Position numbers and translations under genes: made by a program. This document shows, in pieces, positions 8,501 through 37,441 of a stretch of 64,000 nucleotides of DNA; position 1 is the first letter of the stretch; every line of letters starts with the position of its first letter. The DNA is taken from UHGV virus genome UHGV-0179428; one strand, given 5' to 3'. The notes beneath the pieces were generated by a model, which did no database searches, was not told the DNA's origin, and worked only from the letters and a program-made list of their open reading frames with translations. The stretch comes from a virus.

Positions 8501-9779
8501 TCGCTATCTGCGCATTGACCTAACTACCAAAACCTGTAAGTTGGGGATTGGTTCCCGTTCAGATTCTGCTGTTACGGATATTCCGTTAGTGATGGAGGAG
8601 TCTGGGGAAACGGCAGTGGCCGCAACGTTTAAGGATGTGTTGTTCAACGGTGAGGAAACCAACGCGGCGACGCTCGACTTGATAGGTTGGGGTGCCAGCC
8701 GAGATAAAATTCCTGCAAACCATGCACCTCGTGGCATGATTCGCTATCGTTACAACGTAAACAGTCGGGTATTACGTTTAGCACTGACGTTCTCACAGTT
8801 CGGAACGACAACAGTTAAACATCGACAGCTGGAGATTCAATTCCCGTTCGATTTAGTGGATTATTTCACTGGCGACGGTGTGGGATTGTCGTTTAAAGAA
8901 CTGTCTGCGAAATGTCGTGTAACGATTAGTCACGCGCTGATTGATCCGGCTACGAGTAACGTCGACATTGATAAGTACCATTACTTACGTTCGTTGTTCG
9001 AATCGTATCTGGATTCGTCCGTTGGGTATTTGGCTGATACCAAAGACGTTGATTTTAGTCAGTCTGTGATTGACCCTGCGACTTATGAGGTTAGTCAAAA
9101 ATACCGCGTTACAGAAAGCATCGCGCTGCCAACCGGCCAGGGAAGTGTTGCTGTTTCCCATGACGGTCAGTTGCCTGCGCAGTTCTTTGACCGTAAGCTG
9201 TCTCGTGGTGCCTTGATGGCCAAGAAAGGTGAACTCAACGCTTCCTGGAATAATGAGTGGAGCACGACTAAAGCTGCTGCGAGTCGTTATCGCCATAAAC
9301 TCATTCTACGCTTTGCACAAGGTGCTGATAAACAGCAGTATCGCGTTGCAAAAGTGGCCGGGACGGTGAAGTCTAACTGGCCGGGTAAAGTGATTATCGG
9401 TGATGCCGGGAAGGACCCGTATGTATCGGCTATTGATAGCGTATCTTTTGCGCTTTCGACCGCCTCTGATACAGGTAAAGCGATTACTCTTACGCCAAAG
9501 GACTTACGTGTAGGTCAAGACATTTATATTGTCTTAGAACCGCCCGGCAATAATCCAGAAGGTTATGAACTTAACTTCACTTGTTCGTTAGATGTCACTG
9601 ACGAGAAAAGTGTCCGTCAAGATCAACTCAATGCACAGAGTTTCGAACTCCGTAGCGGCGAAAGTCAGTTCTTAATGGAGAAACGCAACCCGTACCACAT
9701 CACGAGTAAAGCGTGGAAGTGGATTCTGGCTGTACTGAAACGAGAACTTAACGGGAAGCAGTTAGGGGATCGTACTTAG
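5598..9779 (+). CDS. giant tail fibre protein (about 1393 aa)
   Basis: ATG at 5598 after AAGGAG (track start 5595 is TTG); shared N-terminal module (RPFFEDLVV...GVDYEL); fibre motif KADLGLGQADNTADLDKPLST and HHH box; terminator follows at 9817-9854. Confidence 0.85.
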   Translation: MKAYPYDPRGTKAENHFLEERIIGSENNNDRVVILDHRPFFEDLVVRQPGSTTPLSRGVDYELQYQLTELDDSVAANVYCGVHLINPSIKGIVTFEGQMLGGTFYDPFVDILDELVKYLNNPVSADWLLLDGRPSLYPATPAATSWADLLNKKYLASAVHDIELKTDDANQLIKDKLAEVKALVTALGKEIEAFNYPAHIAAKNPHETTSAQINAHPVNLKTPDTFMAYGLKLKALTDELKAFRLPQSVIDTYISHWISSEVRGVFNCTVSGNRAQFRSKNGESEIIFANDGFTLKSNGSVVLAVGHLEGTGAGRYINWRAGKNTLRIESTGDALGMNKLTLNGNPLLTTTALMEYQQDPDAGGSGGGDPDDSKVYIEGRNGISFTGKGSRTDPIVGTIDPTKATTAEKGVVKLKTGKGTETVGVAATPASLTPYSTDLSGYVAKTTMINGKPMNDGSRTITKADLGLGQADNTADLDKPLSTELTKAVSGLADVGHHHDWSELGIYKASQSVYGIGRYATNQNGLVENRAVVPNILKELSARLSVVAAAIANAKEGTVTDFAAVKGADWRFNSQGTAISVQDLKYFYLLDGTKGDSTVTGAIDLQTTPMFNWFSPNNQLELTWATGKVSNGTGINWTGIEEPPLMGFQSVPVGKTATQMGDQSVVTVLAKTRVKAYQPKLWVYAAGGGPVTVYINGIQAATGQSPLVAVYETSSDVENYTVAVKAECSDTTKSAAVQFEVYDGDYPVYFSGPETRVELLQEFVTTHVGVRHYLYVNMLTGSLYSRAEPIQSIAVDPERGYIGYVDIVPGQSYANKTVGFETTFDFGKSAEVSEHISTRKAHGLSAVDWALTDNPRLPLLNRAIAEPRACIFRKPLATATGDVFHLVSRGLYTYAHNQNVKSSLQYVVIPEGATPYCWFTPFNPKENNAPTFEGSFAFDVDDVGGTQALAAAPDLVLCTSTQGSSVKRRYLRIDLTTKTCKLGIGSRSDSAVTDIPLVMEESGETAVAATFKDVLFNGEETNAATLDLIGWGASRDKIPANHAPRGMIRYRYNVNSRVLRLALTFSQFGTTTVKHRQLEIQFPFDLVDYFTGDGVGLSFKELSAKCRVTISHALIDPATSNVDIDKYHYLRSLFESYLDSSVGYLADTKDVDFSQSVIDPATYEVSQKYRVTESIALPTGQGSVAVSHDGQLPAQFFDRKLSRGALMAKKGELNASWNNEWSTTKAAASRYRHKLILRFAQGADKQQYRVAKVAGTVKSNWPGKVIIGDAGKDPYVSAIDSVSFALSTASDTGKAITLTPKDLRVGQDIYIVLEPPGNNPEGYELNFTCSLDVTDEKSVRQDQLNAQSFELRSGESQFLMEKRNPYHITSKAWKWILAVLKRELNGKQLGDRT

Positions 9780-9873: not shown

Positions 9874-12800
9874 ATGCCGAGAGAAGACGCGGCGCAGTTT
9901 AACGGTACGCTAAGCACAGTGACGTACCCTAACCGATTTAACGTGGTCATTCCGCCTGAAGGACCTTTTTATCGTATCGGATTAAAACTCACAGTAGCCG
10001 ACGATACCGCGCCTAACGGACGTCGTACTCTGATTGAGGGGTTGGACTACTATTTAGGCTATTACTTTAAAGAACTCGCAGAAGCTGAACAAGATCAGAT
10101 TTATGGCGGGTTTATGTTGCTTACTGCAACAGAAATCGAATATGAGATTTTAGGGGTAGCACGGCAGTATCGTGTACCGCAATCTGAAATCGGGAAGTTC
10201 TTAGTTCGTACTGACCTGAAAGACCCACGTAACGTGGACTGGTCGGAGTTAATGGCGTACGCGCCGGTTATTCAACCAATCGACCCCCCTGCTAACTTAG
10301 AAGAAGCTATTCTGAGGGACGAGGTCGTTAAAGCGTTGAACGATATCCGCAAGAAAATCATTCAGCGTTCAACAGAGTTAGATGCGGCCTTCACCGAAGT
10401 CACTAACCTGATTTACGAGAACGGTAAAAAGATTTTCGATGAAGAACTATACCAACACCACCTTAATCCTAACGCTCACCAGTATACGACCAATGACGTT
10501 GGGGCCCTTCCGGTTTTAGGACGTGCTGTTGACGCTACAAAAGCGTTTGGGTTGACAATTGACCAACTGGCTACGCTGATGGGTTCGGCGGGCATTGAGC
10601 AATCAGACGTTGAACAGTTAATGGGCGAAGCCCTCGGTACCGTTTACGGTCGTTGGGGTACCACGAACGGTAATGAACTAACGTTTAAAACACCGGGTGG
10701 ACACATCATCAGCATCCGTGGTGATAAGTGGTTAATTACTTCACCACAACCGTTAGTGATTAAAGCAGACCAAGACAACAACGAATCCGGTTTGGCGGTT
10801 GAGTTTAGTGCGGGGCTGAATACGCTTTGGGTACACTCTGGGTCAGAACAGGATGTATTAGCACCGGTCTATAACTCTGTGTATTTGGTTACACCAGAAA
10901 TGGTGAACATGTACCTGACGTCTGTAACGTTACTTGAAGCGAACGCCTATTTCAAATCGTCTGACACCGTAAAACCGTACGGTACAGCGAAGCAGTCTAA
11001 CCCACTAACGTTGAATGCGAATATTCCCACAGCAACCGAGTCGGTTTATGGGGTGTTTTCGATTACGAATATCGCAACCTCTGTAGCGCTAGGCACTGCT
11101 ATTTCCCAAAAGGCTGTGACCGAGTTAAAAAACCGGTTGGACTTGTACGTTGATGATAGCTACACGGTTAACGGTAAAGGGTTTGTTAAGACAGGCGACA
11201 ACATGGTGTTAACCTTAACGAAGGCCGATTTCGGTATCGATAAGATGAATAACACCACACCCATCGCTAAACCGGTAACAAAAGCATTAGCGAACGTGCT
11301 GAAAAATAAAAGTTTGAAGGTACACACGCACACTACCGCTGATTTGGATAATGTCCCGATTGGTAGCGCAACAGTGGACGGTATCTTACAGCTGTGGGAT
11401 GCGATTGATACCACGAATGATAAAGCCGTTACATCACGCCAAGGGTGGTTGTTCGCAAAAGAGATTAAGAAGGTCTCTGATAAACTGAATACCCTCTTGC
11501 CCGCATGGACAACGGCCGGGAGCAAATATACCAACAATTCGATATTGCCGATCTTGTCGATGGGTAATTACGAAGGTTATGGTAAAAACATGGATGCGCT
11601 CCAGATGGTTATAGGGGTACAACAAGGTAAGCTTTACGCTTTAATTAGTTCTAAATCTGCCCTTCCGGGAACTGAGGGTATTTATTACGCTGTTGCTGGG
11701 TTAAAAAACGACAAAAGTCTCGGTGAAATTTACAAAACAACTTTCCGTTATAAGCCGAAAGGGTTAGAGACGAATTATCCGGGGGTGGAACTAAAAGAAA
11801 TTACCGTTACTGGTACCGAAGCATTTATAGCGAAGGGCAGCGACGATAATTATTATTTAGTTAAACTGAACGGTTCAATGGATTACACCAAACATACCGA
11901 TGTCAGGTTGGTAACTTTCTCAGAATTTGTTTCAGAAACAACATGGGAATTTGTGCCGAATATGTTCATGGATCGTGTGGTCATAGCCGATAACGGCGTC
12001 TATGTTTTGCGTACGATGCTAATGGCCGATCTGAAAAACAATAGTCTGGTGGACTACATTAAGGATACTCCGCAACCTATGTTCCGTGTTGGGTTATTGC
12101 GGCTTAATAAAACCGATCGGTTTGAACAGGTTGATTTAAGCTCTACACGAAAAATCGGTAAGTGTGCCGATTTGGTTGAACCTGGCGCGTTCGATGTAGA
12201 TAATCCGAATACGAAGCGTCTTGCCTACTTCACTGCGGAAGGCAAAGCGTTGTGGACAGTGAATTTACAATTAACTAGAGGGGTGTCAAGATGGATAACG
12301 CCCGTTGTTAAGGACGGTCACTTGTTAACCGTCGGCGTGTCTGGCGTTTGTCTTGGTTTTTCTTCAACGAAAGGTACCACATTCGGGCCATGGAATGGTG
12401 CTTATCGTCTCGACCTATTAACCGGGGAGGTTGGGTTAGAGACAACTAACATCTTCCCAATCAAAATCGATACTACAGGTTGCTACTTAAAAGACGGAAC
12501 AAAAATAGAGCTGAAATGGAAATGGGCTACTCGAAGTTCTGGCTATATGACCGACAATAGAATCTGTGTCGGTGATATGGTTTATTCTTGCTGCTGTTCG
12601 ACAGAAAAACAACTTGCACCATCTCTCCATTACCAGAAACTCCCAGAAGGAGTTAGTTATCTGGACTATGTTAAGTTGAGTGCGGGGTATGAGGGGCAAT
12701 CTACGTTTGAAAATCGGATAAACCCTGTGGTGGGTTCGGTGTGGAAACCGTCTATGACCTTCCCATTGTTCTTCCCAGGAACAAACAAAGTATGGCTTAA

Positions 12801-15060
12801 ACATCAAAAAACGGCTTATTTCATTGAAGCCGAATATGATAAAGATACGACTTATGGTTATCCTGGATACGGCGGGTTTGGACCAACATCCCGCCGTGTT
12901 GAAAAAAAAGCGAACGAATACGGCGTATTGACAAATATACCGCTGGTTGTTACGCCAGACATACCGAAAGGTCTACTAGATGGGGCTTACTTTATCGGTG
13001 CTGAAAGTAAACCATGTAAAGTTGTTTACGGTACCACTACGGTGGCTAGTGATCGGTTGTCTATCGATGCGGCAGAATGGGCGAAGTTGACTAATATTGT
13101 TCAGTCCAGCCAGTTCTCTGGGGCTTCTAACGGCAACGCCTATGAGCGGATTAGCGTAGCTAAGACCAAAAAGAACAACTACAGTTTGTCCTTTTGGGTG
13201 CTTGGTCAAACGATGTCTGGTGGTCCGCTTTGTATCGCGATAGTGAGTCTTATCTATAAAGACACTGACGGGGTAAATAAGTTTGCTTTTTACTTCTTTC
13301 AGGTAAAACCGACTATAACCAACGGGGTCATAAGGTTCGTTAGTTCGGAAGCGAGAATGATGACGTTCAGGGAAAAAGTGGCCAGTAACGCCATTAATCT
13401 CTCACCCACAGCTTTTAATGGTGAACTTAAACAACGCTCCGGTCAAGTTTTCCTTTATTCGCAAGACGGACAAAAGTTCAGATTCTCAATACATAACCTG
13501 GTTGGCGGGAATCTTGTAGGATCAGAGATTTCTTTTGCTTTTGGGATAAACTTGACTAAAAAAGGAGAATGGTTTACCGGCGAAATTCATCGGGCGTGGG
13601 GCTATACGTATACGCTGAATAATACATCTGAAGTCTATATACCCGATCTCTCGGGCATCGCGCTATTGACTTGTAACTCGGAAGATTTAAACGAGTTGTA
13701 TCTCGGTGGCGAACAGTATAGAATCTCTGATTTGTTTAACAAAAAATATACTGTTATCGATAAGATTATTATTGGCGGCGTACAAACACAGAGCGGTTGG
13801 AATTTCTATCTGACGGAGGAAACCGAGTTAAGTTTTGGAAATAAAAGATATACCGTTCCAAGATGGTCCGTTGATTTAAGCGATGAATTCCCGACTAATC
13901 ACGCTAACCAGACATTCTACGTTTATGCTGAAGTGGTCGGTTCTACTGCCCAATACCGCATCGGTTTAGAGCAGTTAGCTGATACCTCGTCGAGACTGTT
14001 TGTTGGGACAGTAACCACTGATTCGAACCGTATTACGGATATCAGTATCGATAAAGTAAAACGGTTAGGTCGTGTAAAAGAGCTGGAAAATCATGCCTCG
14101 GTTGTTGATCAGCACGATGTGGCGCAGGCGTTCGACAGGAAAACTGGTCCACTATTAACAGTGGTTAATAAACCCGTTAAAGCCATTACAGCATCTGCGA
14201 GCAAGGGTGCTGGGTATGTCGATGGTCAGAAATGGAATACGTTGTCCGGGATTGCAACGCGGCCCAGGTTGCCGGTACAGGAAACCTATTCAGGTTATAA
14301 AAGTATCAGCAGGGTGGCGTATGAGAACTGCGCTGACCAGTTCTGGCAGAAAGCGGTTGCTGCGAACGTTGCAGCGGCTACTGCTTCTGAGAACAAACAA
14401 GCAGCAACCGCGAACATGAAGTGGTTGGGTGCGTATACGAAACCGACTACCGGCGAGTATGCATATCTGGCATTGAGTCTGCGTGTTAAAGTACCTGGCG
14501 ATCCTGGTACTACTAATCGTCGACTGAAAATCAGGCTTGCGGCCCCGACAGGTATAACTCAAGTTCGTTACGGGCTAAATCAGTCTGGCGGTACGATGAC
14601 TGAACAGACAGTAACATTAACTGCTAACAGCTATCTGGAAAAAGAACACGCCGGATTTAAGCCAGCCGAAGAAGTCCGTGTACATGCTACGTTTGTCATT
14701 CCAAAAAATGAATACGATAGCTACCGTACGAAGTTCGGTGCTGTTCAGCTGATTGACGTTGAGTCGAACACTGTCATTAAACAGACAGATATCGACACAC
14801 CGTTTATCGTGTATACCGACACGGAGTTAGCAGCACAATCTGGTTTGGTGTATAAAGCGGTTAAGGGTCAGTTCCATCAACTCCCGTCTCAACCTGTCGT
14901 CATTGTAACTGATGGACAGACAGGGACTACGCCACCGGTGAAAACCTCGTTTGCTGACGGGACATTAACGGTCTACGTGGCAACCACGTACGACGCGGTG
15001 AATCCAGCACAAACGCGCGATATCGATAAGCTCCAGTTCAATCTTATGTTTACATCTTAA
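9874..15060 (+). CDS. giant tail fibre protein (1728 aa)
   Basis: AGGAG RBS; shared N-terminal module (GPFYRIGL...GLDYYL); fibre motif KADFGIDKMNNTTPIAKPV and HTHTTADLDNVP. Confidence 0.85.
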   Translation: MPREDAAQFNGTLSTVTYPNRFNVVIPPEGPFYRIGLKLTVADDTAPNGRRTLIEGLDYYLGYYFKELAEAEQDQIYGGFMLLTATEIEYEILGVARQYRVPQSEIGKFLVRTDLKDPRNVDWSELMAYAPVIQPIDPPANLEEAILRDEVVKALNDIRKKIIQRSTELDAAFTEVTNLIYENGKKIFDEELYQHHLNPNAHQYTTNDVGALPVLGRAVDATKAFGLTIDQLATLMGSAGIEQSDVEQLMGEALGTVYGRWGTTNGNELTFKTPGGHIISIRGDKWLITSPQPLVIKADQDNNESGLAVEFSAGLNTLWVHSGSEQDVLAPVYNSVYLVTPEMVNMYLTSVTLLEANAYFKSSDTVKPYGTAKQSNPLTLNANIPTATESVYGVFSITNIATSVALGTAISQKAVTELKNRLDLYVDDSYTVNGKGFVKTGDNMVLTLTKADFGIDKMNNTTPIAKPVTKALANVLKNKSLKVHTHTTADLDNVPIGSATVDGILQLWDAIDTTNDKAVTSRQGWLFAKEIKKVSDKLNTLLPAWTTAGSKYTNNSILPILSMGNYEGYGKNMDALQMVIGVQQGKLYALISSKSALPGTEGIYYAVAGLKNDKSLGEIYKTTFRYKPKGLETNYPGVELKEITVTGTEAFIAKGSDDNYYLVKLNGSMDYTKHTDVRLVTFSEFVSETTWEFVPNMFMDRVVIADNGVYVLRTMLMADLKNNSLVDYIKDTPQPMFRVGLLRLNKTDRFEQVDLSSTRKIGKCADLVEPGAFDVDNPNTKRLAYFTAEGKALWTVNLQLTRGVSRWITPVVKDGHLLTVGVSGVCLGFSSTKGTTFGPWNGAYRLDLLTGEVGLETTNIFPIKIDTTGCYLKDGTKIELKWKWATRSSGYMTDNRICVGDMVYSCCCSTEKQLAPSLHYQKLPEGVSYLDYVKLSAGYEGQSTFENRINPVVGSVWKPSMTFPLFFPGTNKVWLKHQKTAYFIEAEYDKDTTYGYPGYGGFGPTSRRVEKKANEYGVLTNIPLVVTPDIPKGLLDGAYFIGAESKPCKVVYGTTTVASDRLSIDAAEWAKLTNIVQSSQFSGASNGNAYERISVAKTKKNNYSLSFWVLGQTMSGGPLCIAIVSLIYKDTDGVNKFAFYFFQVKPTITNGVIRFVSSEARMMTFREKVASNAINLSPTAFNGELKQRSGQVFLYSQDGQKFRFSIHNLVGGNLVGSEISFAFGINLTKKGEWFTGEIHRAWGYTYTLNNTSEVYIPDLSGIALLTCNSEDLNELYLGGEQYRISDLFNKKYTVIDKIIIGGVQTQSGWNFYLTEETELSFGNKRYTVPRWSVDLSDEFPTNHANQTFYVYAEVVGSTAQYRIGLEQLADTSSRLFVGTVTTDSNRITDISIDKVKRLGRVKELENHASVVDQHDVAQAFDRKTGPLLTVVNKPVKAITASASKGAGYVDGQKWNTLSGIATRPRLPVQETYSGYKSISRVAYENCADQFWQKAVAANVAAATASENKQAATANMKWLGAYTKPTTGEYAYLALSLRVKVPGDPGTTNRRLKIRLAAPTGITQVRYGLNQSGGTMTEQTVTLTANSYLEKEHAGFKPAEEVRVHATFVIPKNEYDSYRTKFGAVQLIDVESNTVIKQTDIDTPFIVYTDTELAAQSGLVYKAVKGQFHQLPSQPVVIVTDGQTGTTPPVKTSFADGTLTVYVATTYDAVNPAQTRDIDKLQFNLMFTS

Positions 15061-15100
15061 CGCCACGAGACAAGGACGTCTCGGATTAAGGAGAGTGGCC

Positions 15101-16300
15101 ATGGCCTCCATTGTATACCAATACCCTTTAGATTTAACGGGAAGCCTAACCTCTAACGCCGTGGAGCGTCAGGTTACGTTAGGTACAGGTAAAGTTAACC
15201 GTGCGTTTGCTTTTCCTGATGGACCGTTTTATGCCGATACGTTCCGCTTGCGGGTTGCCAACCGACCCGATGCGACGTATGAGCGCGGAACGGACTATGA
15301 GTTGATTTTTGCACATCCGGCTTACGAGAAATTGACGAAGAACCGGGAAGTGGTAATGGCGGTTGTTGTAACGAACACCGCCATTCCGACCGATATCACG
15401 GTATCGGCGCAAGTAGTCGGGGGTCCGCAGTCTGCAAACGTGACTGCGATAGAACAGGCGATTGCTGAGTTGAATCTCGATAATCGAACTGTCGGCTTTA
15501 AAGACTTGCGAAATGTTCCTGATACATTTCCGTCAGCACCAACGTATAAAGACGTCGGTGATATTTACGGTTTCGAATATATCATTACAGTGCTCGCTGG
15601 CATTAAAGATGCGATAACGGCGGGCGATGCTGTACAGCTTGAGAACATCAAAGCGATTCTCGAAAGCCTGAAAAACGATTTCCTGGACGCGCTGAACGCA
15701 CACATTAACGCCACGGGTAACGTCCACCATCTGGATATTCACCAGGTTAACGGGTTAACAGAAACGGAGATCCGTGCACTTATCCGTGATGTACAGTCTG
15801 CCATCGATGCAACCATTACCGATATTAATGCGTTGAAGAAAGCAGATGAAGCGTTAGGAAAACGTATTGATGCTGTTGTCAAATCTTTGGAAGCGTGGAA
15901 CGACCAACTTAACATCGTTGCACAAAACTACCAGAAAATGGCATTGGCATTGGCGAACCTAAATTCGTTAGTGTTACAGTTACAGAAAAATATCAACGAT
16001 CTGAACACCAAACTCAACCAAGCGATTCAGCGCATTGCTGCGTTAGAACAGCGGGGTAATGAGTCCGATCAGAAAATTGATAATCTGCAACAAAACCTGG
16101 ATGCGCTTAAACAACAGGTTGCGAATAACACGAACGCAATCAGTCAGGCGAATCAGAACCTACAAAACCATATTGCGGCAGATAACCCACACACGGGCTA
16201 TCTCCACAAGAAATACGGTGGTGTGGTTCAGGCTCCAGTGCACGTTAACGCTAACTTGACGTCCCGTGATGACGTTCAGGCAGAAGCGGGTACGAAATAA
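15101..16300 (+). CDS. coiled-coil fibre/needle-like structural protein (about 399 aa)
   Basis: ATG at 15101 after AAGGAGAG (track start 15095 is GTG); shared N-terminal module (GPFYADTFRL...GTDYELIF); long heptad-like Q/N/L-rich coiled-coil region. Confidence 0.8.
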   Translation: MASIVYQYPLDLTGSLTSNAVERQVTLGTGKVNRAFAFPDGPFYADTFRLRVANRPDATYERGTDYELIFAHPAYEKLTKNREVVMAVVVTNTAIPTDITVSAQVVGGPQSANVTAIEQAIAELNLDNRTVGFKDLRNVPDTFPSAPTYKDVGDIYGFEYIITVLAGIKDAITAGDAVQLENIKAILESLKNDFLDALNAHINATGNVHHLDIHQVNGLTETEIRALIRDVQSAIDATITDINALKKADEALGKRIDAVVKSLEAWNDQLNIVAQNYQKMALALANLNSLVLQLQKNINDLNTKLNQAIQRIAALEQRGNESDQKIDNLQQNLDALKQQVANNTNAISQANQNLQNHIAADNPHTGYLHKKYGGVVQAPVHVNANLTSRDDVQAEAGTK

Positions 16301-16310
16301 CTTTATTACA

Positions 16311-16355
16311 GGAGGAACTATGCTTATGGGCGTAGTCCTCCATTCTTTTTTATTT
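16311..16355 (+). terminator. rho-independent terminator-like hairpin plus T-run between the fibre gene and the Cys-rich peptide genes
   Basis: Imperfect inverted repeat GGAGGAACTA...TAGTCCTCC followed by ATTCTTTTTTATTTT. Confidence 0.5.
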
Positions 16356-16367
16356 TAAGGATACGTG

Positions 16368-16763
16368 ATGGCGATCAGTGTTAAAAATGTACGTGACCGA
16401 ATCACCAACGTAGAGAACCAAATGGCAACTGGCCCACGTGTTGATCCGCAAGTTGCGTCGAAAGCACATAATGCCGCCGACACTTTTTCGGGTTGGACGC
16501 CAAGTCGGTTAGACTGCGGGGGGAGTTGCAGCTGGACGTGCTCAAACGGTTGTACGCATGGCTGTACGAGTTGTTCGGGCACCTGTACGTCAGTGTGTGT
16601 AGGTAGCTGCTCCTCTGCGTGCGGTAACCAGTGTACTGGATGTAGTTCAACGTGTTCCGGTGGCTGCTCAGGTTGCAGTGGGACCTGTGGGGGTGCTTGC
16701 TCGGGCCGTTGTTCTACGGGTTGTTCTGGTGCTTGCTCTGGTGGCTGTTCTGGCCCAACCTAA
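16368..16763 (+). CDS. Cys-rich repeat peptide A (131 aa), candidate radical-SAM substrate/precursor
   Basis: ATG after AAGGA RBS; N-terminus MAISVKNVRDRITNVEN, junction DCGGSCSWTCS, then about 80 aa of C-x3-C repeats rich in G/S/T; paralogous to the next two ORFs. Confidence 0.8.
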   Translation: MAISVKNVRDRITNVENQMATGPRVDPQVASKAHNAADTFSGWTPSRLDCGGSCSWTCSNGCTHGCTSCSGTCTSVCVGSCSSACGNQCTGCSSTCSGGCSGCSGTCGGACSGRCSTGCSGACSGGCSGPT

Positions 16764-16773
16764 GAGGTGAAAA

Positions 16774-17172
16774 ATGGCAATTGGATTACCTGCGCTACAA
16801 GCGCGGCTAAATAACATTGACAACACTGCATTGAAGAATACGGGTGCAGTACAAAACTATATTCGTGGGAAAGCGACGAACAACGCAGACTTATTCGGTG
16901 GGCAAGCTCGCAACCACTATGACTGTGGTGGGAGCTGTAGCTGGACCTGTTCGAGCTGTTCTGGTGGTTGTACAGGGAACGCATCAGGCGGCTGTGGTTC
17001 TTCCTGTTCTGCAAACTGTGTATCAGGTTGTAGTGCAGGCTGTAGTGGATGTTCGAATACCTGTTCTGGTGGCTGTTCAGGAAGCTGTACGGGGAGTTGT
17101 TCTAACTCGTGTGTAGGAAACTGTTCTGCAGGCTGCTCAGGTAGTTGTTCTGGTGGGTGTTCTGGGAGGTAA
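16774..17172 (+). CDS. Cys-rich repeat peptide B (132 aa), candidate radical-SAM substrate/precursor
   Basis: ATG after AGAGGTGA; N-terminus MAIGLPALQARLNNIDN, junction DCGGSCSWTCS, about 80 aa of C-x3-C repeats. Confidence 0.8.
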   Translation: MAIGLPALQARLNNIDNTALKNTGAVQNYIRGKATNNADLFGGQARNHYDCGGSCSWTCSSCSGGCTGNASGGCGSSCSANCVSGCSAGCSGCSNTCSGGCSGSCTGSCSNSCVGNCSAGCSGSCSGGCSGR

Positions 17173-17174
17173 TT

Positions 17175-17381
17175 GTGATTAGCCTTAAGAACCTTCGTGA
17201 TCGGTTAGTAACAGCGGAAGGGTATATTACGACCGCTAACGCAAACAACTATATTGCAAACCAGGGCACTGTGTCTTCAACCAATAACCTTGCCGGTTTA
17301 CCTTTAAGCCATTATAACTGTAACGGTGGATGTAGCTGGTCGTGCAGTGGTAGCTGTAGTAAAGGTGCGGGGGGAAGGTAA
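17175..17381 (+). CDS. Cys-rich peptide C (68 aa), short paralog of A/B
   Basis: GTG at 17175 five nt after GGGAGG, three nt after the stop of peptide B; N-terminus MISLKNLRDRLVTAEG, junction NCNGGCSWSCSGSCS, then only 8 more residues. The track start at 17145 is an upstream in-frame artefact. Confidence 0.65.
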   Translation: MISLKNLRDRLVTAEGYITTANANNYIANQGTVSSTNNLAGLPLSHYNCNGGCSWSCSGSCSKGAGGR

Positions 17382-17530
17382 CTAAGCCCTCCAGTGGTAG
17401 TATGTCTATTACGCAATAACCGAGTTAATTGTACGGGTTTACTACTGAGTTTCAAGTCACCGGTAGGCAATGGCGCGGTGGTTTCTATACCCTGAATGTC
17501 CGTTTGACCGTGAAATAATTGGAGCAATCA

Positions 17531-18418
17531 ATGAAGAATGATTTACATTTAGCGTACAAAACAATTTTCAATCATCCACTTCACATTTCTTCCCCTGATT
17601 CCGTACGTGCACACTTAGCAGATGAAGTTCGTCTGCTGACTCAGTTGCCGGGCGAATGGCCTAAAGTGCGCGGACGTTTCTTTACCGATCGTAAAAACTA
17701 TCGTGTAGAAAATACGTTTAAGATTCGTGATCTGACGGCAGAAAGTGTAGTGGTCTTTACCGGTGACTCCGAGTTGCGTGGTAAACTGGTTGCGGGTAAA
17801 TATTTCTTTAGTGACGGGATTTTGAATAACTCCGTAGATATGGAATTGTTCTTTACCCCATTTGAAGAAATGGGCGCAAAACCGGTTGCCCGTCGTTGGT
17901 GGTCACCGGATTACTTAGGCTCGTTCCCGTATTTCTTTACCCTGGTAACACCAGAAACGAAGAACTATTTCGATACGGAATCGTATATCGAAATTGAAGG
18001 GTACGAAGCGTTAGGGATTAATTGCTTAGCGGATTTAATGGCGTATAGCTATAAGTTCGTGTGGGATCGTGAACGTTCCGTGTGGGTTGCCCTGACGGAT
18101 GAACACGAAATCACAAAACGCATCCGTAAGCCTTGGATGCAGCATTTGATTCAAACGCGTATTGGCGAGCATCCGTCAACAGAAGCGGATCTGGCAAAAC
18201 TCGTTAGTTTCTTAATGACGAAAGTCACGTTAACTGACGAAGAGAAAGCAGCAGTGTCGGCGGTGTTGGACCGTAACGTAACGTTAGCGGATTTAGAACG
18301 TTTAAATGTCCGTTATAAAGACCTTAACCGTGTTTTGGAAGCGTATAACTCTCCATTTTTGTTAACCCCTGGTGCTAACGTAGACGACGATCCTTTGTTC
18401 GCCATTGATTATATTTAA
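17531..18418 (+). CDS. hypothetical protein (296 aa) inside the Cys-peptide/radical SAM locus
   Basis: ATG at 17531 seven nt after GGAG (track start 17519 is TTG); no recognisable motif; sits between the precursors and the radical SAM genes. Confidence 0.75.
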   Translation: MKNDLHLAYKTIFNHPLHISSPDSVRAHLADEVRLLTQLPGEWPKVRGRFFTDRKNYRVENTFKIRDLTAESVVVFTGDSELRGKLVAGKYFFSDGILNNSVDMELFFTPFEEMGAKPVARRWWSPDYLGSFPYFFTLVTPETKNYFDTESYIEIEGYEALGINCLADLMAYSYKFVWDRERSVWVALTDEHEITKRIRKPWMQHLIQTRIGEHPSTEADLAKLVSFLMTKVTLTDEEKAAVSAVLDRNVTLADLERLNVRYKDLNRVLEAYNSPFLLTPGANVDDDPLFAIDYI

Positions 18419-18439
18419 AAACGACCGGAGTCACCTGCA

Positions 18440-19363
18440 ATGACAACCAATGCAGAACCAAGGTTATCGAATCGTTTATACGATAAACCCACCGTATTGT
18501 CCGTAGTCGCTACGTCCAAGTGTAACCTGGATTGTAGCTTCTGCGGTGGAGCCTATTACATGAATCGTGAAGATTCTCCGCGAGAGTTTCAACGTGAGCG
18601 AATTTTGGAAGCGCTGGAAGCTAATCCAACCATTACCGAAATTCAGTGGACGGGTGGTGAGCCATTACTGGCAACCCGTAAAATTGAGGCGTTTGTTGAC
18701 GAATTAAAAGTGATTCGTCCAGAACTCAAACACCAGTTGTATACCAATGGCTTAAAGATGCGTAAATCGCATCTCCCGTTGCTAAAACAGTTTGACAATG
18801 TCTACGTTAGCATCGATGGGTTTAAGTCGTCTGAGCGCCCGTTTATGCGCTTTATTGACGAAGGCTGTTACGAAGCACTGGAAACGATCTACGAGCTGGA
18901 TAATGTCCAGACTTGGGGTGTCCTGACACGGGACCGTTTAGGGGACAAACGCTGGCACGAAGATATTATTCAGCTGCACAGCGCGATTTACCATTACGGT
19001 TTCCGTGCAATGACGTTACTCTTAGATGCGAAAATGCCAAAACCTTTATCGCCTGACCACGTCATGAACTTTATTTACGGCTACTATCAGGTTCAGGACA
19101 ACATTGAACGGCTGAATGTAGTAAATAGTCGTGAATGCGGCTTTACGGTAAGTAAAGTGTTTGAAGAAGGGTGTAACGTTTGCAGCGAAAGTCTTTGGAT
19201 TAATGCAGACGGTGGTGAGCACCAACTCCAGAATGCACCTAACGTTCTGGAATCGGGATGTAACCAACTGGCCTTCTCTATCGGTGTAGAGGCGTACGAA
19301 TATATTCGTCGTGTGGTGATGGCAGGGCGTAATAGAGGGGCGGCAAATGAGTCAAGTAAATGA
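18440..19363 (+). CDS. radical SAM enzyme (307 aa)
   Basis: CNLDCSFCGG (CxxxCxxC) near the N-terminus, GGEPLL glycine-rich motif, VSIDGFKSSERP segment, additional C-terminal cysteines (CGF...CNVC...GC). Confidence 0.8.
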   Translation: MTTNAEPRLSNRLYDKPTVLSVVATSKCNLDCSFCGGAYYMNREDSPREFQRERILEALEANPTITEIQWTGGEPLLATRKIEAFVDELKVIRPELKHQLYTNGLKMRKSHLPLLKQFDNVYVSIDGFKSSERPFMRFIDEGCYEALETIYELDNVQTWGVLTRDRLGDKRWHEDIIQLHSAIYHYGFRAMTLLLDAKMPKPLSPDHVMNFIYGYYQVQDNIERLNVVNSRECGFTVSKVFEEGCNVCSESLWINADGGEHQLQNAPNVLESGCNQLAFSIGVEAYEYIRRVVMAGRNRGAANESSK

Positions 19364-20669
19364 ATTCCCTAAGCAGTTAACGTATCAGATCGTAACCAAC
19401 CTTTCGTGTAACCTGGACTGCGAATATTGTTACGAACGTAAGTACCCGCGTAACAACAAAGCGGCTGACATTGTTGATTTCTTACACGCCTGTTTTGAAC
19501 GTGATAAAAACGAACCGAATGTTGAAGTTATTATCGACATTATCGGTGGTGAACCGTTCATGCAGCCTAAACTGCTGTTGGCTGCGTTTGAAACCGCTGA
19601 GCAGTTGTGTAAAGAACACAACCGACCGTTTATGTTTAGTATCTCCACGAACGGAACGCTGTTAGATCGTCCGTTGAACCGTGAGATTGTAGAACGTTGG
19701 AAAGATAAACTTTCGGTTGGGGTTTCGATTGATGGCTTACCTGAATCCCATGACCGTTATCGTATCTTCACAACAACACGCCAGGGTTCTTACGAAGCCG
19801 CAGTACGTGGCTATAACTACTTAAAAGAGGTTGGCATTGCAGAGCTCGGCGTAAAAGCAACCTTTACGTTAGAAACGCTGCCGTTCTATGCTGCGGGGAT
19901 GAAGTCATTAATTGACATTACTGGCGGTGGGACAATTTCTGGAAACGTAACTTTCGAAGACGTTATGCCACGTAGCATGGCGACGTCAATCGCTTTACAG
20001 ATGATGGATGTGATAGATTACTGGGTTGAGAAAGGATTACACACCAACCCACGTAATATCCTATCGCATATCATTCCAGAAGGGTTGGATTTCGACACGA
20101 TTTGGGAACCGAACTGGCGTGACCAGTTACTGTATAATGACACCGTACGGTTGAACCCGGAACGCTTACGTCCGTTCTGTGGGACGTTAACGCACATGAC
20201 GTGCTTAGGGTTTGACCGTAAGATCTTTGGCTGTAACCGCTTTATGTCAACGGTAACGTCGCGTTCTGCGGTGTTTGAGTTGGTAGGTCGGGAATTCGTC
20301 AGTCTGGACAACGGTAAATTGTTAGAAGAGATTCAAACGCAATATACCAACTACCCAGAGACCTGTTTAGGTTGTCCGATGAAACACGCTTGTGGTAGCT
20401 GCGCAGCGGCTTCTTACGAGAACGGGGAAGGAACGTTAGAAGACCGTAAAGCGTATCACGCTGAACGACGTCAGTGTGGCTGGACGACAGCGAAACTGAT
20501 GGTGGCGGAATACTGGAAACAGAAGATGGGTACGACGTCAGCAAAAGCGTTCCACGACACGAGTATGTGTTATTGCCCACGCTGTGTTCGTGAACGTGCC
20601 CAAAAGGAAAAATTATTAAGAGAAGCCAAAGATGAAACCAATTCTGATCAACAATATTACGAAGCGTAG
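19347..20669 (+). CDS. radical SAM enzyme with SPASM-like C-terminal Cys cluster (440 aa), anSME/peptide-maturase-like
   Basis: CNLDCEYCY (CxxxCxxC), GGEPF, SIDGLPESHDRYR, C-terminal CLGCPMKHACGSC plus further cysteines; overlaps the previous gene by 17 nt. Confidence 0.8.
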   Translation: MSQVNEFPKQLTYQIVTNLSCNLDCEYCYERKYPRNNKAADIVDFLHACFERDKNEPNVEVIIDIIGGEPFMQPKLLLAAFETAEQLCKEHNRPFMFSISTNGTLLDRPLNREIVERWKDKLSVGVSIDGLPESHDRYRIFTTTRQGSYEAAVRGYNYLKEVGIAELGVKATFTLETLPFYAAGMKSLIDITGGGTISGNVTFEDVMPRSMATSIALQMMDVIDYWVEKGLHTNPRNILSHIIPEGLDFDTIWEPNWRDQLLYNDTVRLNPERLRPFCGTLTHMTCLGFDRKIFGCNRFMSTVTSRSAVFELVGREFVSLDNGKLLEEIQTQYTNYPETCLGCPMKHACGSCAAASYENGEGTLEDRKAYHAERRQCGWTTAKLMVAEYWKQKMGTTSAKAFHDTSMCYCPRCVRERAQKEKLLREAKDETNSDQQYYEA

Positions 20670-21204
20670 AATTCGACTTCTGGATAAGTTTCTGGAAAAC
20701 AGTAAGCTATTTGGTTGTTATGTGGTGATTAACGGTGAAGATTTTACCGATGACGTAAAACGCTTGCTGATTCGTCACGGTGTGACTGTAATCATCCCAA
20801 TGTACTGCACCGAACTTACTGACCTGTCGGTCGCGGAAATTGAAAAACGTAACCCAGGGTTTGAAGAACGGGTATTGGATTTCCCACGTCACAAAATTGC
20901 GTTTCTACGCCGCTCTTTAAGCGAACCCAGCGCAGAATCTATCACTGTGTTGGCATTGTCCTTCCCCGGCATTACTATCTTCGCAACACGTAACCCGAAC
21001 TCACCGATTGATGGGTTTTACGATGAGCGGGAGAAATTTAATACCGTGATTTTTCCTGAGCTAACGCCAGAAGAATGCCAGGGTATCCGTATCGATTGGG
21101 AATCGGACTTCGACACAAGATTCCGTCATATCGATTTTGAACTGTTAATCGAATTAGGGTTGATTAAAGGAGACGATGAATGTCTGCTACTGGTGAAGGC
21201 TTAA
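20632..21204 (+). CDS. hypothetical protein (190 aa)
   Basis: ORF overlapping the 3' end of the SPASM gene by 38 nt; no motif recognised. Confidence 0.6.
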   Translation: MKPILINNITKRRIRLLDKFLENSKLFGCYVVINGEDFTDDVKRLLIRHGVTVIIPMYCTELTDLSVAEIEKRNPGFEERVLDFPRHKIAFLRRSLSEPSAESITVLALSFPGITIFATRNPNSPIDGFYDEREKFNTVIFPELTPEECQGIRIDWESDFDTRFRHIDFELLIELGLIKGDDECLLLVKA

Positions 21205-21851
21205 CGAAAGAAGAAATCCGTCGCCGTTATTTTGCGCATGATTTACCGATTGACCGTCATGGTAACTACATGGAGAAAATCGGTAGCGAAGATCACGGCC
21301 GTACAGGGTTTTGTGCGTTACTGCACTATAAGCTGATTGATGGGATGTCTGATCGCGAAGCATTGGAACAAATGCGTAACTACGACATGTCTGAAATCGA
21401 AGCACGGTTTACGCTACAGAAAGCGAAAGACTTTGTTAACGACACGTTGGGAATCGACCTGGAAGAAATTCGTACAGGTTTACGTTCCACGGTGCGGTAC
21501 ATCTTTACCGATGTTCAGAAAATTCTAAGCGCTCTGGAATTCCGTTATCAGGATGCACGCTATGCTGAGATTCAGGTAGGTGATTTCACTTTCCAGGCAG
21601 ATGAGAAGTCACAGGTAGCATTGAGTCGTTATATCCAGTCAGAAACTGCGCCAGCGTATTGGTTAACGGCTAACAACACCCGTATCGAACCGTTTACGTT
21701 AGAACAGTGCAAGACGTTGCTGGCAGCAATCGTTGAGCGTGATCAAAGACTACATCACGCAATGTCTGAGCAGAAAAGAGAAGTCAGGGCTTGGGCTGAA
21801 GCACGTGATTACGATTCGATAAAAGCGTTTGCGTTAGAGCAAGGGCTGTAA
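21180..21851 (+). CDS. hypothetical protein (223 aa)
   Basis: ORF with AAAGGAG RBS; last gene of the plus-strand block. Confidence 0.7.
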   Translation: MSATGEGLTKEEIRRRYFAHDLPIDRHGNYMEKIGSEDHGRTGFCALLHYKLIDGMSDREALEQMRNYDMSEIEARFTLQKAKDFVNDTLGIDLEEIRTGLRSTVRYIFTDVQKILSALEFRYQDARYAEIQVGDFTFQADEKSQVALSRYIQSETAPAYWLTANNTRIEPFTLEQCKTLLAAIVERDQRLHHAMSEQKREVRAWAEARDYDSIKAFALEQGL

Positions 21852-21874
21852 TCGACAGCGAAAAAAAAATAGTA

Positions 21875-21915
21875 TACCTACCTCCCGTAATAGGAGGTAG
21901 GTATTTTTATTTTTC
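21875..21915. terminator. bidirectional rho-independent terminator at the strand-switch point
   Basis: Perfect hairpin TACCTACCTCC-CGTAAT-AGGAGGTAGGTA flanked by an A-run upstream and TTTTTATTTTT downstream, between convergent gene blocks. Confidence 0.75.
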
Positions 21916-21930
21916 TGTTGTTGATTTTCA

Positions 21931-22461
21931 TTAGGCTGGAGTAAAACCGTCAAGTTCACTATTTAACGTTGACATGTCCGTAACAACACGTAGCGTCAGT
22001 GTGCACAAAGACCCAGGTTGAAATTTGAGATTACCACCTTTAACGTTACAGTTATACAGGGCTGTAGATTCTGTTACTGCGCCTTTAGCGATTATAACCT
22101 CACCTACCGCAAACTCATCGTCAACCCAACCGCGTTTCTGAATCAGCTCGTTGAGAATAGCGACAATCTGATCGTTATTCTTTTCAAGTTCTTCAGCAGT
22201 GGCTACATTGTAAGTTTGTGGGCCTAAAACATTAACCCCGGGAATTCGGGTATAGTGGAATACTTTAGAGCCTGTGAAATTTGCAGATGTGGGCCGTGCG
22301 GTGAGCGTTACTTGCGCGTTGCGGGAACTACCAGGTTCTGTAGGCTGGTAGTTGGCAACGCCTTCACCAAAGTCAACATCCTCTAAAGTCAGTGGTGCTT
22401 GAAGCTGATTGTTTTTAAGGTTTATTAAATCAATCAGCTGTTGTTCAGTGCTTTTAGCCAT
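21931..22461 (-). CDS. ELDGFT-family paralog (176 aa), probable virion-associated protein
   Basis: N-terminus QQLIDLINLKNNQL...LTLEDVDFG, C-terminal ELDGFTPA; paralogous to the two ORFs upstream. Confidence 0.75.
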   Translation of the reverse strand: MAKSTEQQLIDLINLKNNQLQAPLTLEDVDFGEGVANYQPTEPGSSRNAQVTLTARPTSANFTGSKVFHYTRIPGVNVLGPQTYNVATAEELEKNNDQIVAILNELIQKRGWVDDEFAVGEVIIAKGAVTESTALYNCNVKGGNLKFQPGSLCTLTLRVVTDMSTLNSELDGFTPA

Positions 22462-22529
22462 GGTAGCGATTTCTCTATCGTGAACTAAAAGATCTGGGGG
22501 TTAACACCCCCAGACGGTTCTTTTGGGAT

Positions 22530-23060
22530 TTAGGACGTAAAGCCGTCCAGCTCACCGTTGGTGGTAGCCAGGTCAATACGTTTGTCTTCCACTTTCGGGG
22601 TAATAACAAACGTTGCCATTACACCTGGTTTATAACGGAGGTTCTTTTCAGTAACAGTACACGTTACCGTACGCAGAGTAACGTTTTCATGTTCGTCTTT
22701 CTGGTCTTCGGTAGAATAAGAAACGTCCGCTGGATGAATAGCATCGTCCGGTTTAACTTTATTGATGTAATATTGTAACCATGCGCGCAATTCGTTTTGA
22801 TCTTCCCAACGAGACAGATCGTCAGTTAGTTCAATACGACCTACAACACCCGGTTCCAGACGATCGTAATGCAGTTCGATTGCGCCTTTGAAATTCTCAG
22901 AACCTGGTAGTGCAGTCATGGTAACTTTGGTATTCTTACCTTCGCCTTCCAGCGCAGTAGGGAGACCAAAGGACACTTCTTTATCAGTAATCTGATGTGG
23001 TAGCTCAGTGTTAGCAGCATTATAAAGCGCGACCAACATCATCTGGTTAGTAGCGGCCAT
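22530..23060 (-). CDS. ELDGFT-family paralog (176 aa)
   Basis: C-terminal GELDGFTS; same architecture as neighbours. Confidence 0.75.
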   Translation of the reverse strand: MAATNQMMLVALYNAANTELPHQITDKEVSFGLPTALEGEGKNTKVTMTALPGSENFKGAIELHYDRLEPGVVGRIELTDDLSRWEDQNELRAWLQYYINKVKPDDAIHPADVSYSTEDQKDEHENVTLRTVTCTVTEKNLRYKPGVMATFVITPKVEDKRIDLATTNGELDGFTS

Positions 23061-23125
23061 TATCTTAGATCCTTAATAATACGTTTTAAAGAAATATCGG
23101 GGGAGGACACCCCCCCCCGATTCAA

Positions 23126-23668
23126 TTACTCTTTAGGACTCGGTGCAGTGAAGCCCTCGAGCTCACCATCCAGGCTGTCCAGAGCTACCTTCTGAGGAGC
23201 CGGTACACGGTACTGGTAATTTGCAATCATACCAGCCTGGAACTTGATATGACCTTCTTTTACCTGTACAGTATAGTTGAAACCGCCTTCACCTGCATCA
23301 GTTTTCTGGATTTCCAGTTCTTCTGCGATAAAGGCATCATCGACATAACCTTTAGTAATCATGTCGGCATTCAGTGCAGCTACGATAACATCGTTAGCGA
23401 CATCAGTAGTTGCATCAGTAACGGTTTTCACACCGATTAAAGATTCGGCGACCAGACGGATATAATGGAACTCTTTGCTTCCGGTAAAGTTAGCGCTTTC
23501 GTCTTTTGCAGTCAGGACAACTTTAGTATTACGGTTGTCATCTTCGCCAGAAGGACTATAAAGTTCTACAGTACCGAAATTAACATCGCCAACAGTCAGT
23601 TGGTGTTCCAGGGAACCGTTTTTGGCATTAACGGCGTCAATAAGTTGCTGTTGAAAAGCTTTAGCCAT
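23126..23668 (-). CDS. ELDGFT-family paralog (180 aa)
   Basis: N-terminus QQLIDAVNAKNGSL, C-terminal GELEGFTAP. Confidence 0.75.
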   Translation of the reverse strand: MAKAFQQQLIDAVNAKNGSLEHQLTVGDVNFGTVELYSPSGEDDNRNTKVVLTAKDESANFTGSKEFHYIRLVAESLIGVKTVTDATTDVANDVIVAALNADMITKGYVDDAFIAEELEIQKTDAGEGGFNYTVQVKEGHIKFQAGMIANYQYRVPAPQKVALDSLDGELEGFTAPSPKE

Positions 23669-37425: not shown

Positions 37426-37441
37426 CTACCCTCTTTTTTAA

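Follow-up and report, generated by a model that had tools for sequence, protein, structure and literature searches.

The viral genome UHGV-0179428, analysed here as a stretch of 64,000 nucleotides (the window), carries on its plus strand, at positions 16368-20669, three tandem genes for small cysteine-rich proteins, pepA, pepB and pepC, followed by a gene for an accessory protein and two genes for radical S-adenosylmethionine (SAM) enzymes, the second of the SPASM type. The reading that we favor, with moderate confidence, is that this locus is a maturation module for the tips of tail fibres, operating probably through thioether cross-links, and that its products belong to the fibre or baseplate apparatus. 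Because the CXXX repeat of these proteins is the end of a fibre in other phages, a fibre tip is what the enzymes would most likely cross-link. An earlier note on this DNA, made by a model from the letters alone, had proposed a fibre tip rather than a diffusible peptide; the occurrence of the repeat as a fibre C-terminus ahead of the same enzymes elsewhere supports that proposal.

In the scheme we envision, pepA, pepB and pepC would be the substrates, each made of a short helical N-terminal region, a junction and, C-terminally, a series of C-(S/T)-G-(S/T/G) units. The cysteines of this series would be acted on by the SPASM enzyme, with help from its short radical SAM paralogue and from the 295-residue accessory protein. 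Since an N-terminal peptide-recognition domain is missing from the SPASM enzyme, the accessory protein would probably present or chaperone the substrate, and it may stand in for that domain. The most likely reaction would be the formation of a series of small-ring thioethers (of sactionine or ranthionine type), by which a floppy tail of glycine, serine and cysteine would become a rigid rod with covalent lacing. The products would be fibre or baseplate parts, not secreted peptides, and the repeat that ends a fibre in other phages would have been split off as three small proteins in jumbo phages of the SPN3US type. That the enzymes act on the three peptides, and that the peptides enter the virion, we infer from sequence; the thioether chemistry is probable by analogy with PapB, CteB and QhpD.

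Putative substrates, accessory protein and enzymes

The window comes from a jumbo phage related to SPN3US (Seoulvirus, phiKZ-like). Its DNA is about 72% identical to that of Salmonella phage SPN3US and of related Erwinia, Escherichia and Proteus jumbo phages, and SPN3US genes 168 to 161 recur in the same order. The components of the locus are the following.

16368..16763, plus strand: pepA, 131 residues, 21 cysteines; phrog_6085, E 1.6e-40; N-terminal region of about 49 residues, then the CXXX repeat
16774..17172, plus strand: pepB, 132 residues, 20 cysteines; phrog_6085, E 4.7e-38; paralogue with CXXX repeat
17175..17381, plus strand: pepC, 68 residues, 4 cysteines; phrog_6085, E 2.5e-24; paralogue with the same N-terminal region and junction
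17531..18418, plus strand: accessory protein, 295 residues, ATG start; phrog_8030; orthologue of SPN3US gp165
18440..19363, plus strand: radical SAM enzyme 1, 307 residues, motif CNLDCSFC; Pfam Radical_SAM, 53 bits; phrog_1802, E 3e-61
19347..20669, plus strand: radical SAM/SPASM enzyme 2, 440 residues, motif CNLDCEYC; Pfam Radical_SAM, 57 bits (the Pfam cut-off is 29.5 bits)

The three small reading frames, described by the earlier note as tandem cysteine-rich paralogues, are genuine genes and not chance products of a repetitive stretch. All lie on the plus strand where they had been placed, match the same PHROG and are preceded by a Shine-Dalgarno sequence; pepC starts with GTG at 17175, just after GGGAGG. 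Across 10 phages every cysteine column is invariant (21 of 21 in pepA and 20 of 20 in pepB), while the remaining core positions are 58-62% identical and the SPASM enzymes of the same phages 59-85% identical. Differences from SPN3US at codon positions 1, 2 and 3 number 37, 24 and 68 in pepA, 27, 31 and 76 in pepB, and 10, 4 and 39 in pepC, and the changed codons of pepC comprise 33 synonymous and 7 non-synonymous ones.

Within the repeat unit, C-(S/T)-G-(S/T/G), the first residue after the cysteine is serine or threonine in 65-79% of units and the second is glycine in 48-69%; about 80% of the spacers between cysteines are three residues long and 15-20% are two. The variable positions of the jumbo-phage cores are filled by serine, glycine, threonine, alanine and asparagine, with almost no aspartate or glutamate. 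Ahead of the repeat all three proteins share a junction with the consensus N-A-D-x-L/F-G-G-x4-Y-x-C-x2-C-S-W-T/S-C, which in pepA reads NAAD.FSGW....LDCGGSCSWTCS. Tryptic peptides expected from the pepA of SPN3US include VQIVEANMATGPR, IDAQVASK and FGGWTK. Against the hidden Markov model (HMM) of the CXXX-repeat target family, TIGR04114 (cut-off 20 bits), pepB scores 20.4 bits, and pepA and pepC fall below, at 14.4 and 12.4 bits. Among related CXXX proteins, 20 of 59 match the same model at E <= 0.01. A Pfam scan of pepA, pepB, pepC and the accessory protein gave no match.

Two metagenomic relatives of pepC (P0183 and P0186) continue for about 70 residues past the four-cysteine motif into a beta-rich domain, which suggests that a short cysteine motif can join an N-terminal anchor to a distal domain. 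A profile search with the junction alignment retrieved only small proteins of the pepA/B/C type and a family of cysteine-repeat proteins with a Tat signal, and no new fused fibres. In that family P0195 and P0197 show a signal of the twin-arginine type (SRREFFK...) followed by CXXX repeats, P0195 bearing the precomputed label PF27846; they appear to form a separate exported family, probably bacterial, that has only the repeat in common with the peptides. In the closest relative among viral contigs (IMG/VR 3300045988_078609, 3150-4947), about 1 kilobase of extra sequence lies between pepA and pepB as compared with the window and SPN3US.

The protein encoded between the peptides and the enzymes was given 296 residues in the earlier note. 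It is indeed present, with a length of 295 residues: we place its start at the ATG at 17531, not at the TTG at 17519 (299 residues in the list of open reading frames), because the orthologues have 295 residues. The 250-residue proteins found at the corresponding place in other loci are homologous to it (pairwise E 4e-10, profile E down to 6e-44). This is a rare family: 1.84 billion proteins contain 44 clusters of it at 50% identity. To judge from these homologues, the module includes the accessory protein as a conserved fourth part and not as a bystander.

Both enzymes contain the motifs that had been quoted for them: CNLDCSFC and CNLDCEYC, GGEPL and GGEPF, SIDGLPESHDRYR and CLGCPMKHACGSC. In enzyme 2 the cysteines of the CX3CX2C motif (C21, C25 and C28) are invariant among 22 homologues, as are C296, C340, C343, C349, C352 and C377, and C278 and C286 are at least 90% conserved; an additional CYCPRC lies near the C-terminus. 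With the CX3CX2C motif and eight C-terminal cysteines, from which two auxiliary [4Fe-4S] clusters are predicted, the protein has the make-up of a radical SAM/SPASM enzyme, for which 7-8 C-terminal cysteines including CX2CX5CX2-3C are expected. It aligns with the TIGR04115 model nearly from end to end (positions 3-345 of 359; E 6.5e-33) with 114.7 bits, below the 350-bit cut-off, and scores 116.8 bits against PapB, below that family's cut-off of 340. Weaker matches are to the geopeptide maturase, the HxsB maturase, YhhB, QhpD and the SCIFF maturase. The best match in the PDB is CteB (5wgg; E 6e-14), of which residues 105-266 align with residues 19-180 of the query; since the cluster motif begins at residue 21, the N-terminal recognition domain of CteB has no counterpart in enzyme 2. 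The layout of a SPASM-type peptide maturase, as first noticed from the motifs, is thus borne out by the TIGR04115 alignment, the PapB match, the eight cysteines and the nearest structure. Because 115 bits compares with a cut-off of 350, we place the enzyme in a sister clade of TIGR04115 and of PapB.

Enzyme 1 is a shorter paralogue of enzyme 2 (BLASTP E 2e-5) and accompanies it throughout the close clade. When aligned with 10 orthologues it keeps two to three C-terminal cysteines (C245, C274 and, in part, C248). Enzyme 2 is 81.5% identical to SPN3US gp163, and its closest relatives (93-99% identical) come from metagenomes only.

CXXX repeats at the ends of tail fibres

The main argument for a role in fibres comes from five other phage or prophage loci, in which a protein with a CXXX repeat at its C-terminus is followed by the accessory protein and radical SAM enzymes. 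These CXXX-tailed proteins have 258-568 residues, and three of the five are recognisable tail fibres. In a P2-like prophage of Campylobacter pinnipediorum the protein is a fibre of 384 residues with a PF12571 N-terminus, ending in '...GCNGCSGSCSGSCSSGCTACSGCSGSCSGKSDGCGCRHS', and the genes run in the order gpW, gpJ, gpI, fibre, 250-residue accessory homologue, SPASM enzyme, short radical SAM enzyme, DUF1353, sheath and tube. A prophage of Deferribacter abyssi has, after a tail-tip gene of the GpJ type, a 302-residue protein with HxHDxRYYTE fibre repeats that ends in '...KATNADQLGGQAGSYYRCSDCSWTCSSSC(TGxC)n', then a 250-residue accessory protein and two radical SAM enzymes; a third locus (L166) encodes an HxH-repeat fibre in the same layout. 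The other two proteins are one of 568 residues ending in '...NAVTLGGQPPDFYTCGGSCSWSC...' (L017) and one of 271 residues whose N-terminal part has only a weak match to the Apolipoprotein family of Pfam (L169). The junction motif NAD.LGG....Y.C..CSW.C is common to the fused proteins and to pepA, pepB and pepC. A free-standing CXXX protein of 116 residues, as in the window, is encoded on a 170-kilobase contig (L167).

This recurring gene pattern defines a four-part module, in which a CXXX-tailed protein is joined by the accessory protein, the SPASM enzyme and the short radical SAM paralogue of the latter. The number of enzymes varies, since some relatives (L166, 4306-7134; L017, 4065-8107) have three, or split, radical SAM genes after the accessory protein. 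Among IMG/VR loci with a related SPASM gene, 75 of 80 carry a CXXX reading frame on the same strand within a few kilobases, compared with 5 of 80 control loci with more distant bacterial SPASM enzymes; the controls came from a scan of GTDB genomes with the SPASM profile and are mostly generic relatives that match in the N-terminal part only.

The link to tails extends to the classical family. Gut viral contigs encode enzymes above the TIGR04115 cut-off (497, 513 and 367 bits for L053, L074 and L036), and these loci adjoin tail-fibre genes or sit in modules of virion structural genes. The CXXX-repeat system defined in silico thus appears, as a whole, to belong to phage tail modules, with the window clade as a divergent variant that has two extra partners. 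Small reading frames beside the classical SPASM genes, where a third component similar to TIGR04116 was looked for, had no NCBIfam match.

A different arrangement is seen on a 279-kilobase viral contig (L019, 5883-9071) and in L018, where the genes for accessory protein, SPASM enzyme and short radical SAM enzyme come after that of a 97-residue protein ending in GCESCAMGCHGPQ, with only three cysteines. Its gene follows that of an apparent SNF2-family helicase with an intein-like insert, as judged by eye from the translation. The 97-residue protein may be a minimal or a different substrate, outside a tail module.

Published virion data for SPN3US (NC_027402/JN641803) bear on part of this picture. 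Mass spectrometry (MS) detected gp167, gp168, gp169, gp170 and gp171, all lost from tailless particles, and did not detect gp161-gp166 (Thomas 2016, PMC5105663, Table S4). Both enzymes and the accessory protein, whose SPN3US counterparts gp163-gp165 are not among the proteins detected, are therefore non-structural, as expected of maturation factors. The peptides are another matter. SPN3US gp166 (8426-8761) is an out-of-frame call over pepB, and pepA (7950-8342), pepB (8353-8757) and pepC (8773-8979) of that phage have no annotation. In the case of gp164, the annotated start (10031) also lies 3' of its CNLDCSFC motif; the conserved start is at 9911 (gene 9911-10825). In the records of some Salmonella phages (SPFM5, 6, 7, 9, 14, 15 and others; LR5359xx), HMM scores of the radical SAM and accessory genes are strong but their BLAST alignments are short (7-21% coverage), a pattern suggestive of frameshifts or of errors in the sequence across the locus.

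Several observations weigh against the fibre-tip interpretation. The wrong-frame gp166 left the peptides out of the search database, so their absence from the SPN3US virion data is uninformative rather than supportive. The repeats have no Asp/Glu acceptor of the kind that PapB uses, and the scores of the enzymes are far below the curated cut-offs of all characterised families; the chemistry is therefore extrapolated. An AlphaFold2 model of pepB has a predicted local distance difference test (pLDDT) value of 43, with two weak N-terminal helices, and says nothing on the repeat. The accessory protein has a confident predicted structure that matches no known fold, and hence its role is a guess from position. 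Finally, no clear CXXX protein was found in the related loci L168 and L018/L019.

Other explanations of the locus

The alternative closest to the preferred one accepts that fibre-associated substrates are modified and supposes a different cysteine chemistry, such as formylglycine or dehydroalanine formation, C- or S-methylation or carbon-carbon links, the two enzymes carrying out two steps. We judge this unlikely, though worth serious consideration. It would account for the low scores against every characterised family, for the lack of a conserved acidic acceptor in the core and for the constant company of two distinct radical SAM enzymes in the close clade, since a single repeated thioether reaction would need no second enzyme. 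The anaerobic sulfatase maturase family is also among the matches of enzyme 2 (59.2 bits; cut-off 349), but its target motif, C/S-x-P/A-x-R, is absent from pepA, pepB and pepC. Searches of Pfam and NCBIfam found no cobalamin-binding or methyltransferase domain, and the best characterised matches (PapB, CteB, the SCIFF maturase and QhpD) all make cysteine thioethers.

One could also envision that the CXXX proteins stay out of the virion and act in assembly, as metal or iron-sulfur chaperones or cleavable folding aids, a fused tail being an intramolecular chaperone removed after trimerisation. Fibres are known to have C-terminal intramolecular chaperones, the genes occupy the position of the tail-fibre assembly genes of P2-type phages, the SPN3US neighbours gp161-165 are non-structural, and the cores, dense in cysteine and rich in glycine and serine, are by prediction disordered in isolation. 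A folding aid, however, would need no pair of radical SAM enzymes, and searches with Pfam, NCBIfam and PHROGs revealed neither a protease nor an autocleaving domain. The 41 invariant cysteines, together with a dedicated SPASM maturase akin to cross-linking enzymes, point to a covalent product, and the globular domain that follows the cysteine motif in relatives of pepC looks like a functional distal part. These considerations make an assembly role improbable.

The small proteins might instead be precursors of diffusible peptides (bacteriocin-like, signalling or anti-defence), that is, of a classical peptide made on the ribosome and modified after translation (RiPP), with the N-terminal 50 residues as leader and release at lysis. 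Their leader-plus-core appearance invites this idea, the SPASM maturase comes from a clan dominated by RiPP enzymes, and the substrates are free-standing in SPN3US-like phages and on the 170-kilobase contig. Yet the five other loci have repeat and junction as part of tail-fibre or larger proteins; the supposed leader motif, NAD.LGG....Y, belongs to the fibre body in those fused versions; the module lies inside the tail gene clusters of four different phage types; and searches of the genes between 16368 and 21851 with Pfam, NCBIfam and PHROGs turned up no peptidase, transporter or immunity family. We consider this explanation distinctly improbable.

A non-peptide role of the enzymes, with the cysteine-rich frames as unrelated neighbours, is effectively excluded: enzyme 1 does match MoaA, QueE and NrdG weakly (43.8, 35.5 and 34.0 bits, with cut-offs of 284, 260 and 131) and a QueE-like PHROG (E 1.6e-6), but only over the generic cluster-binding core at residues 20-132 or so and at 13-26% of the cut-off scores, and the enzyme pair travels with the CXXX and accessory proteins across unrelated phage types, as also reflected in the 75 of 80 viral loci. 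A match to such families was the outcome that the earlier note had named as counting against a peptide maturase, and these scores fall far short of one.

If the fibre-tip interpretation is right, the locus would represent a new class of virion chemistry, one that would bear on the stability of particles, on receptor binding and on host range. We know of no radical SAM maturation of phage virion proteins. It is tempting to generalize further, although here our confidence is lower and the proposal tentative: radical SAM thioether ladders in distal fibre ends might be a structural modification of receptor-binding proteins common to SPN3US-like phages, Campylobacter P2-like prophages, Deferribacter lambda-like prophages and hundreds of TIGR04115 gut phages, and the CXXX-repeat RiPP family might be a fibre-hardening or adhesin system instead of a natural-product pathway. 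The orphan CXXX-repeat/TIGR04115 family would then gain a biological context in phage tail modules rather than among antibiotic-like peptides. Multi-site cross-linking of a simple C-S-G-S repeat on a large protein could also become a tool for protein engineering. Amber mutants and published virion proteomes are available for SPN3US, a genetic model in which the hypothesis can be tested directly.

The statement in the earlier note that no phage system of this kind was known needs qualification. The pairing of enzyme and target is already known as an in-silico kind (TIGR04114/TIGR04115); what appears to be new is the four-part variant, its systematic association with tail fibres and the presence, in a model jumbo phage, of putative substrates that had escaped annotation. 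A search of full-text literature found no link of radical SAM/SPASM enzymes to tail fibres or CXXX repeats; a prior description is possible.

Genomic surroundings and comparison with known systems

The features on either side of the locus are the following.

9874..15060, plus strand: baseplate/fibre protein, 1728 residues; phrog_7449, 1638 bits; syntenic orthologue of SPN3US gp168
15095..16300, plus strand: coiled-coil virion protein, 401 residues; phrog_2163 'virion structural protein', E 8e-103; orthologue of SPN3US gp167
16311..16356, plus strand: hairpin with U-run resembling an intrinsic terminator, dividing the fibre genes from the peptide/enzyme block
20632..21204, plus strand: protein of 190 residues; phrog_7988, E 1.8e-55; counterpart of SPN3US gp162; overlaps the neighbouring genes
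21180..21851, plus strand: DUF4376 protein of 223 residues, last gene of the block; PF14301, E 5e-11; weak tail-fibre PHROG matches; counterpart of SPN3US gp161
21874..21904, both strands: bidirectional terminator with stems of 12-13 pairs and T-runs on each strand, closing the plus-strand block and the converging minus-strand genes

SPN3US gp168 is a tail protein, termed baseplate/fibre (Thomas 2016, PMC5105663). The hairpin after the gp167 orthologue (-19.7 kcal/mol, z = -5.0) is not equalled by any of 200 shuffled sequences, and SPN3US and phiEaH2 have an equivalent hairpin of different sequence in the same place (z = -3.65 and -3.58). Between the two terminators the genes are close-packed or overlapping, an arrangement consistent with a single transcription unit from pepA through the DUF4376 gene. 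A scan for sigma-70 promoters showed no enrichment (10 found, 10.7 expected from shuffles), a result of little relevance because the phage has its own RNA polymerases. The phrog_7988 gene is confined to the SPN3US-like group (jumbo-phage loci L001, L002 and L006-L016). A DUF4376 gene is also found 3' of the radical SAM pair on the unrelated 170-kilobase contig.

Beyond the block, at 21931-23668 on the minus strand, lie three tandem paralogues of 176-180 residues, all with an ELDGFT end, which by synteny are counterparts of SPN3US gp160, an abundant virion protein retained in tailless particles (Thomas 2016, PMC5105663). Farther away, the DNA at about 37441-38126 is some 80% identical to the gene for the gp38 adhesin, or 'distal long tail fibre assembly catalyst', of the T-even phages RB49, JSE and relatives. 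This stretch has the appearance of a receptor-recognition gene, horizontally shared and present here in an SPN3US-like jumbo phage.

Like the genes for T-even gp38 (a glycine-rich polyglycine-II protein), P2 gpG, lambda Tfa and the intramolecular chaperones, the peptide genes stand directly after fibre genes, and tail-fibre adhesins and assembly factors likewise have Gly/Ser-rich low-complexity distal modules with non-structural helpers alongside. None of those systems, however, has radical SAM enzymes or cysteine repeats, and no similarity of sequence or fold to the window proteins was detected. The block also departs from the general definition of a RiPP cluster, in which a precursor with a cleavable leader is accompanied by a leader peptidase and/or exporter and yields a free peptide; no such peptidase or exporter was found in it with Pfam, NCBIfam or PHROGs.

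Among enzymes of characterised function, CteB, which makes the SCIFF peptide thermocellin, and the sactipeptide maturases AlbA, SkfB and RumMC are SPASM enzymes that form thioethers on cysteine-rich cores, and in maturases of this type threonine can serve as acceptor. CteB-like enzymes have an N-terminal RiPP recognition element of about 100 residues that enzyme 2 lacks, and the scores against this group (51-60 bits, 59.5 for TIGR03974) compare with cut-offs of 425-720, so that enzyme 2 is not assigned to it. QhpD, acting on QhpC, offers a precedent for a SPASM enzyme that puts several cysteine thioethers into a structural subunit, that of quinohemoprotein amine dehydrogenase. Enzyme 2 scores 61 bits against the QhpD model and its relatives up to 119, short of membership at 453; in contrast to the window, the QhpD/QhpC system has Asp/Glu acceptors, a periplasmic enzymatic protein and no repeat architecture.

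PapB, the ranthipeptide maturase of freyrasin, is the best-scoring characterised family. As proposed for the window, a single SPASM enzyme there modifies a short cysteine motif many times, and in PapB, as in enzyme 2, the cluster motif is near the N-terminus without a large recognition domain ahead of it. PapB forms Cys-to-Asp beta-carbon thioethers in C-x3-D repeats, however, and does so as one enzyme on a short secreted peptide, whereas the window has two enzymes and an accessory protein for substrates of 68-132 residues (whole fibres in its relatives). With 116.8 bits against a cut-off of 340, and with Asp/Glu essentially absent from the repeat cores, where C-x3-D/E motifs would be expected, enzyme 2 falls outside the PapB family proper.

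The nearest system overall is that of TIGR04114, its paralogue family TIGR04117 and TIGR04115, which was defined in silico and for which we know of no biochemical characterisation. Missing from the classical loci of that system are two partners found in the window clade, the short radical SAM paralogue and the accessory protein of 250-300 residues, and the CXXX proteins of gut phages have an N-terminal domain of about 100 residues in place of the fibre junction motif. As in the window, a gene for a CXXX-repeat substrate is adjacent to that for a radical SAM/SPASM enzyme; pepA, pepB and pepC lie 2-3 kilobases upstream of the SPASM gene on the same strand, providing the nearby CXXX target that goes with TIGR04115. 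And, again like the window, members above the family cut-off are found in phage tail or virion modules.

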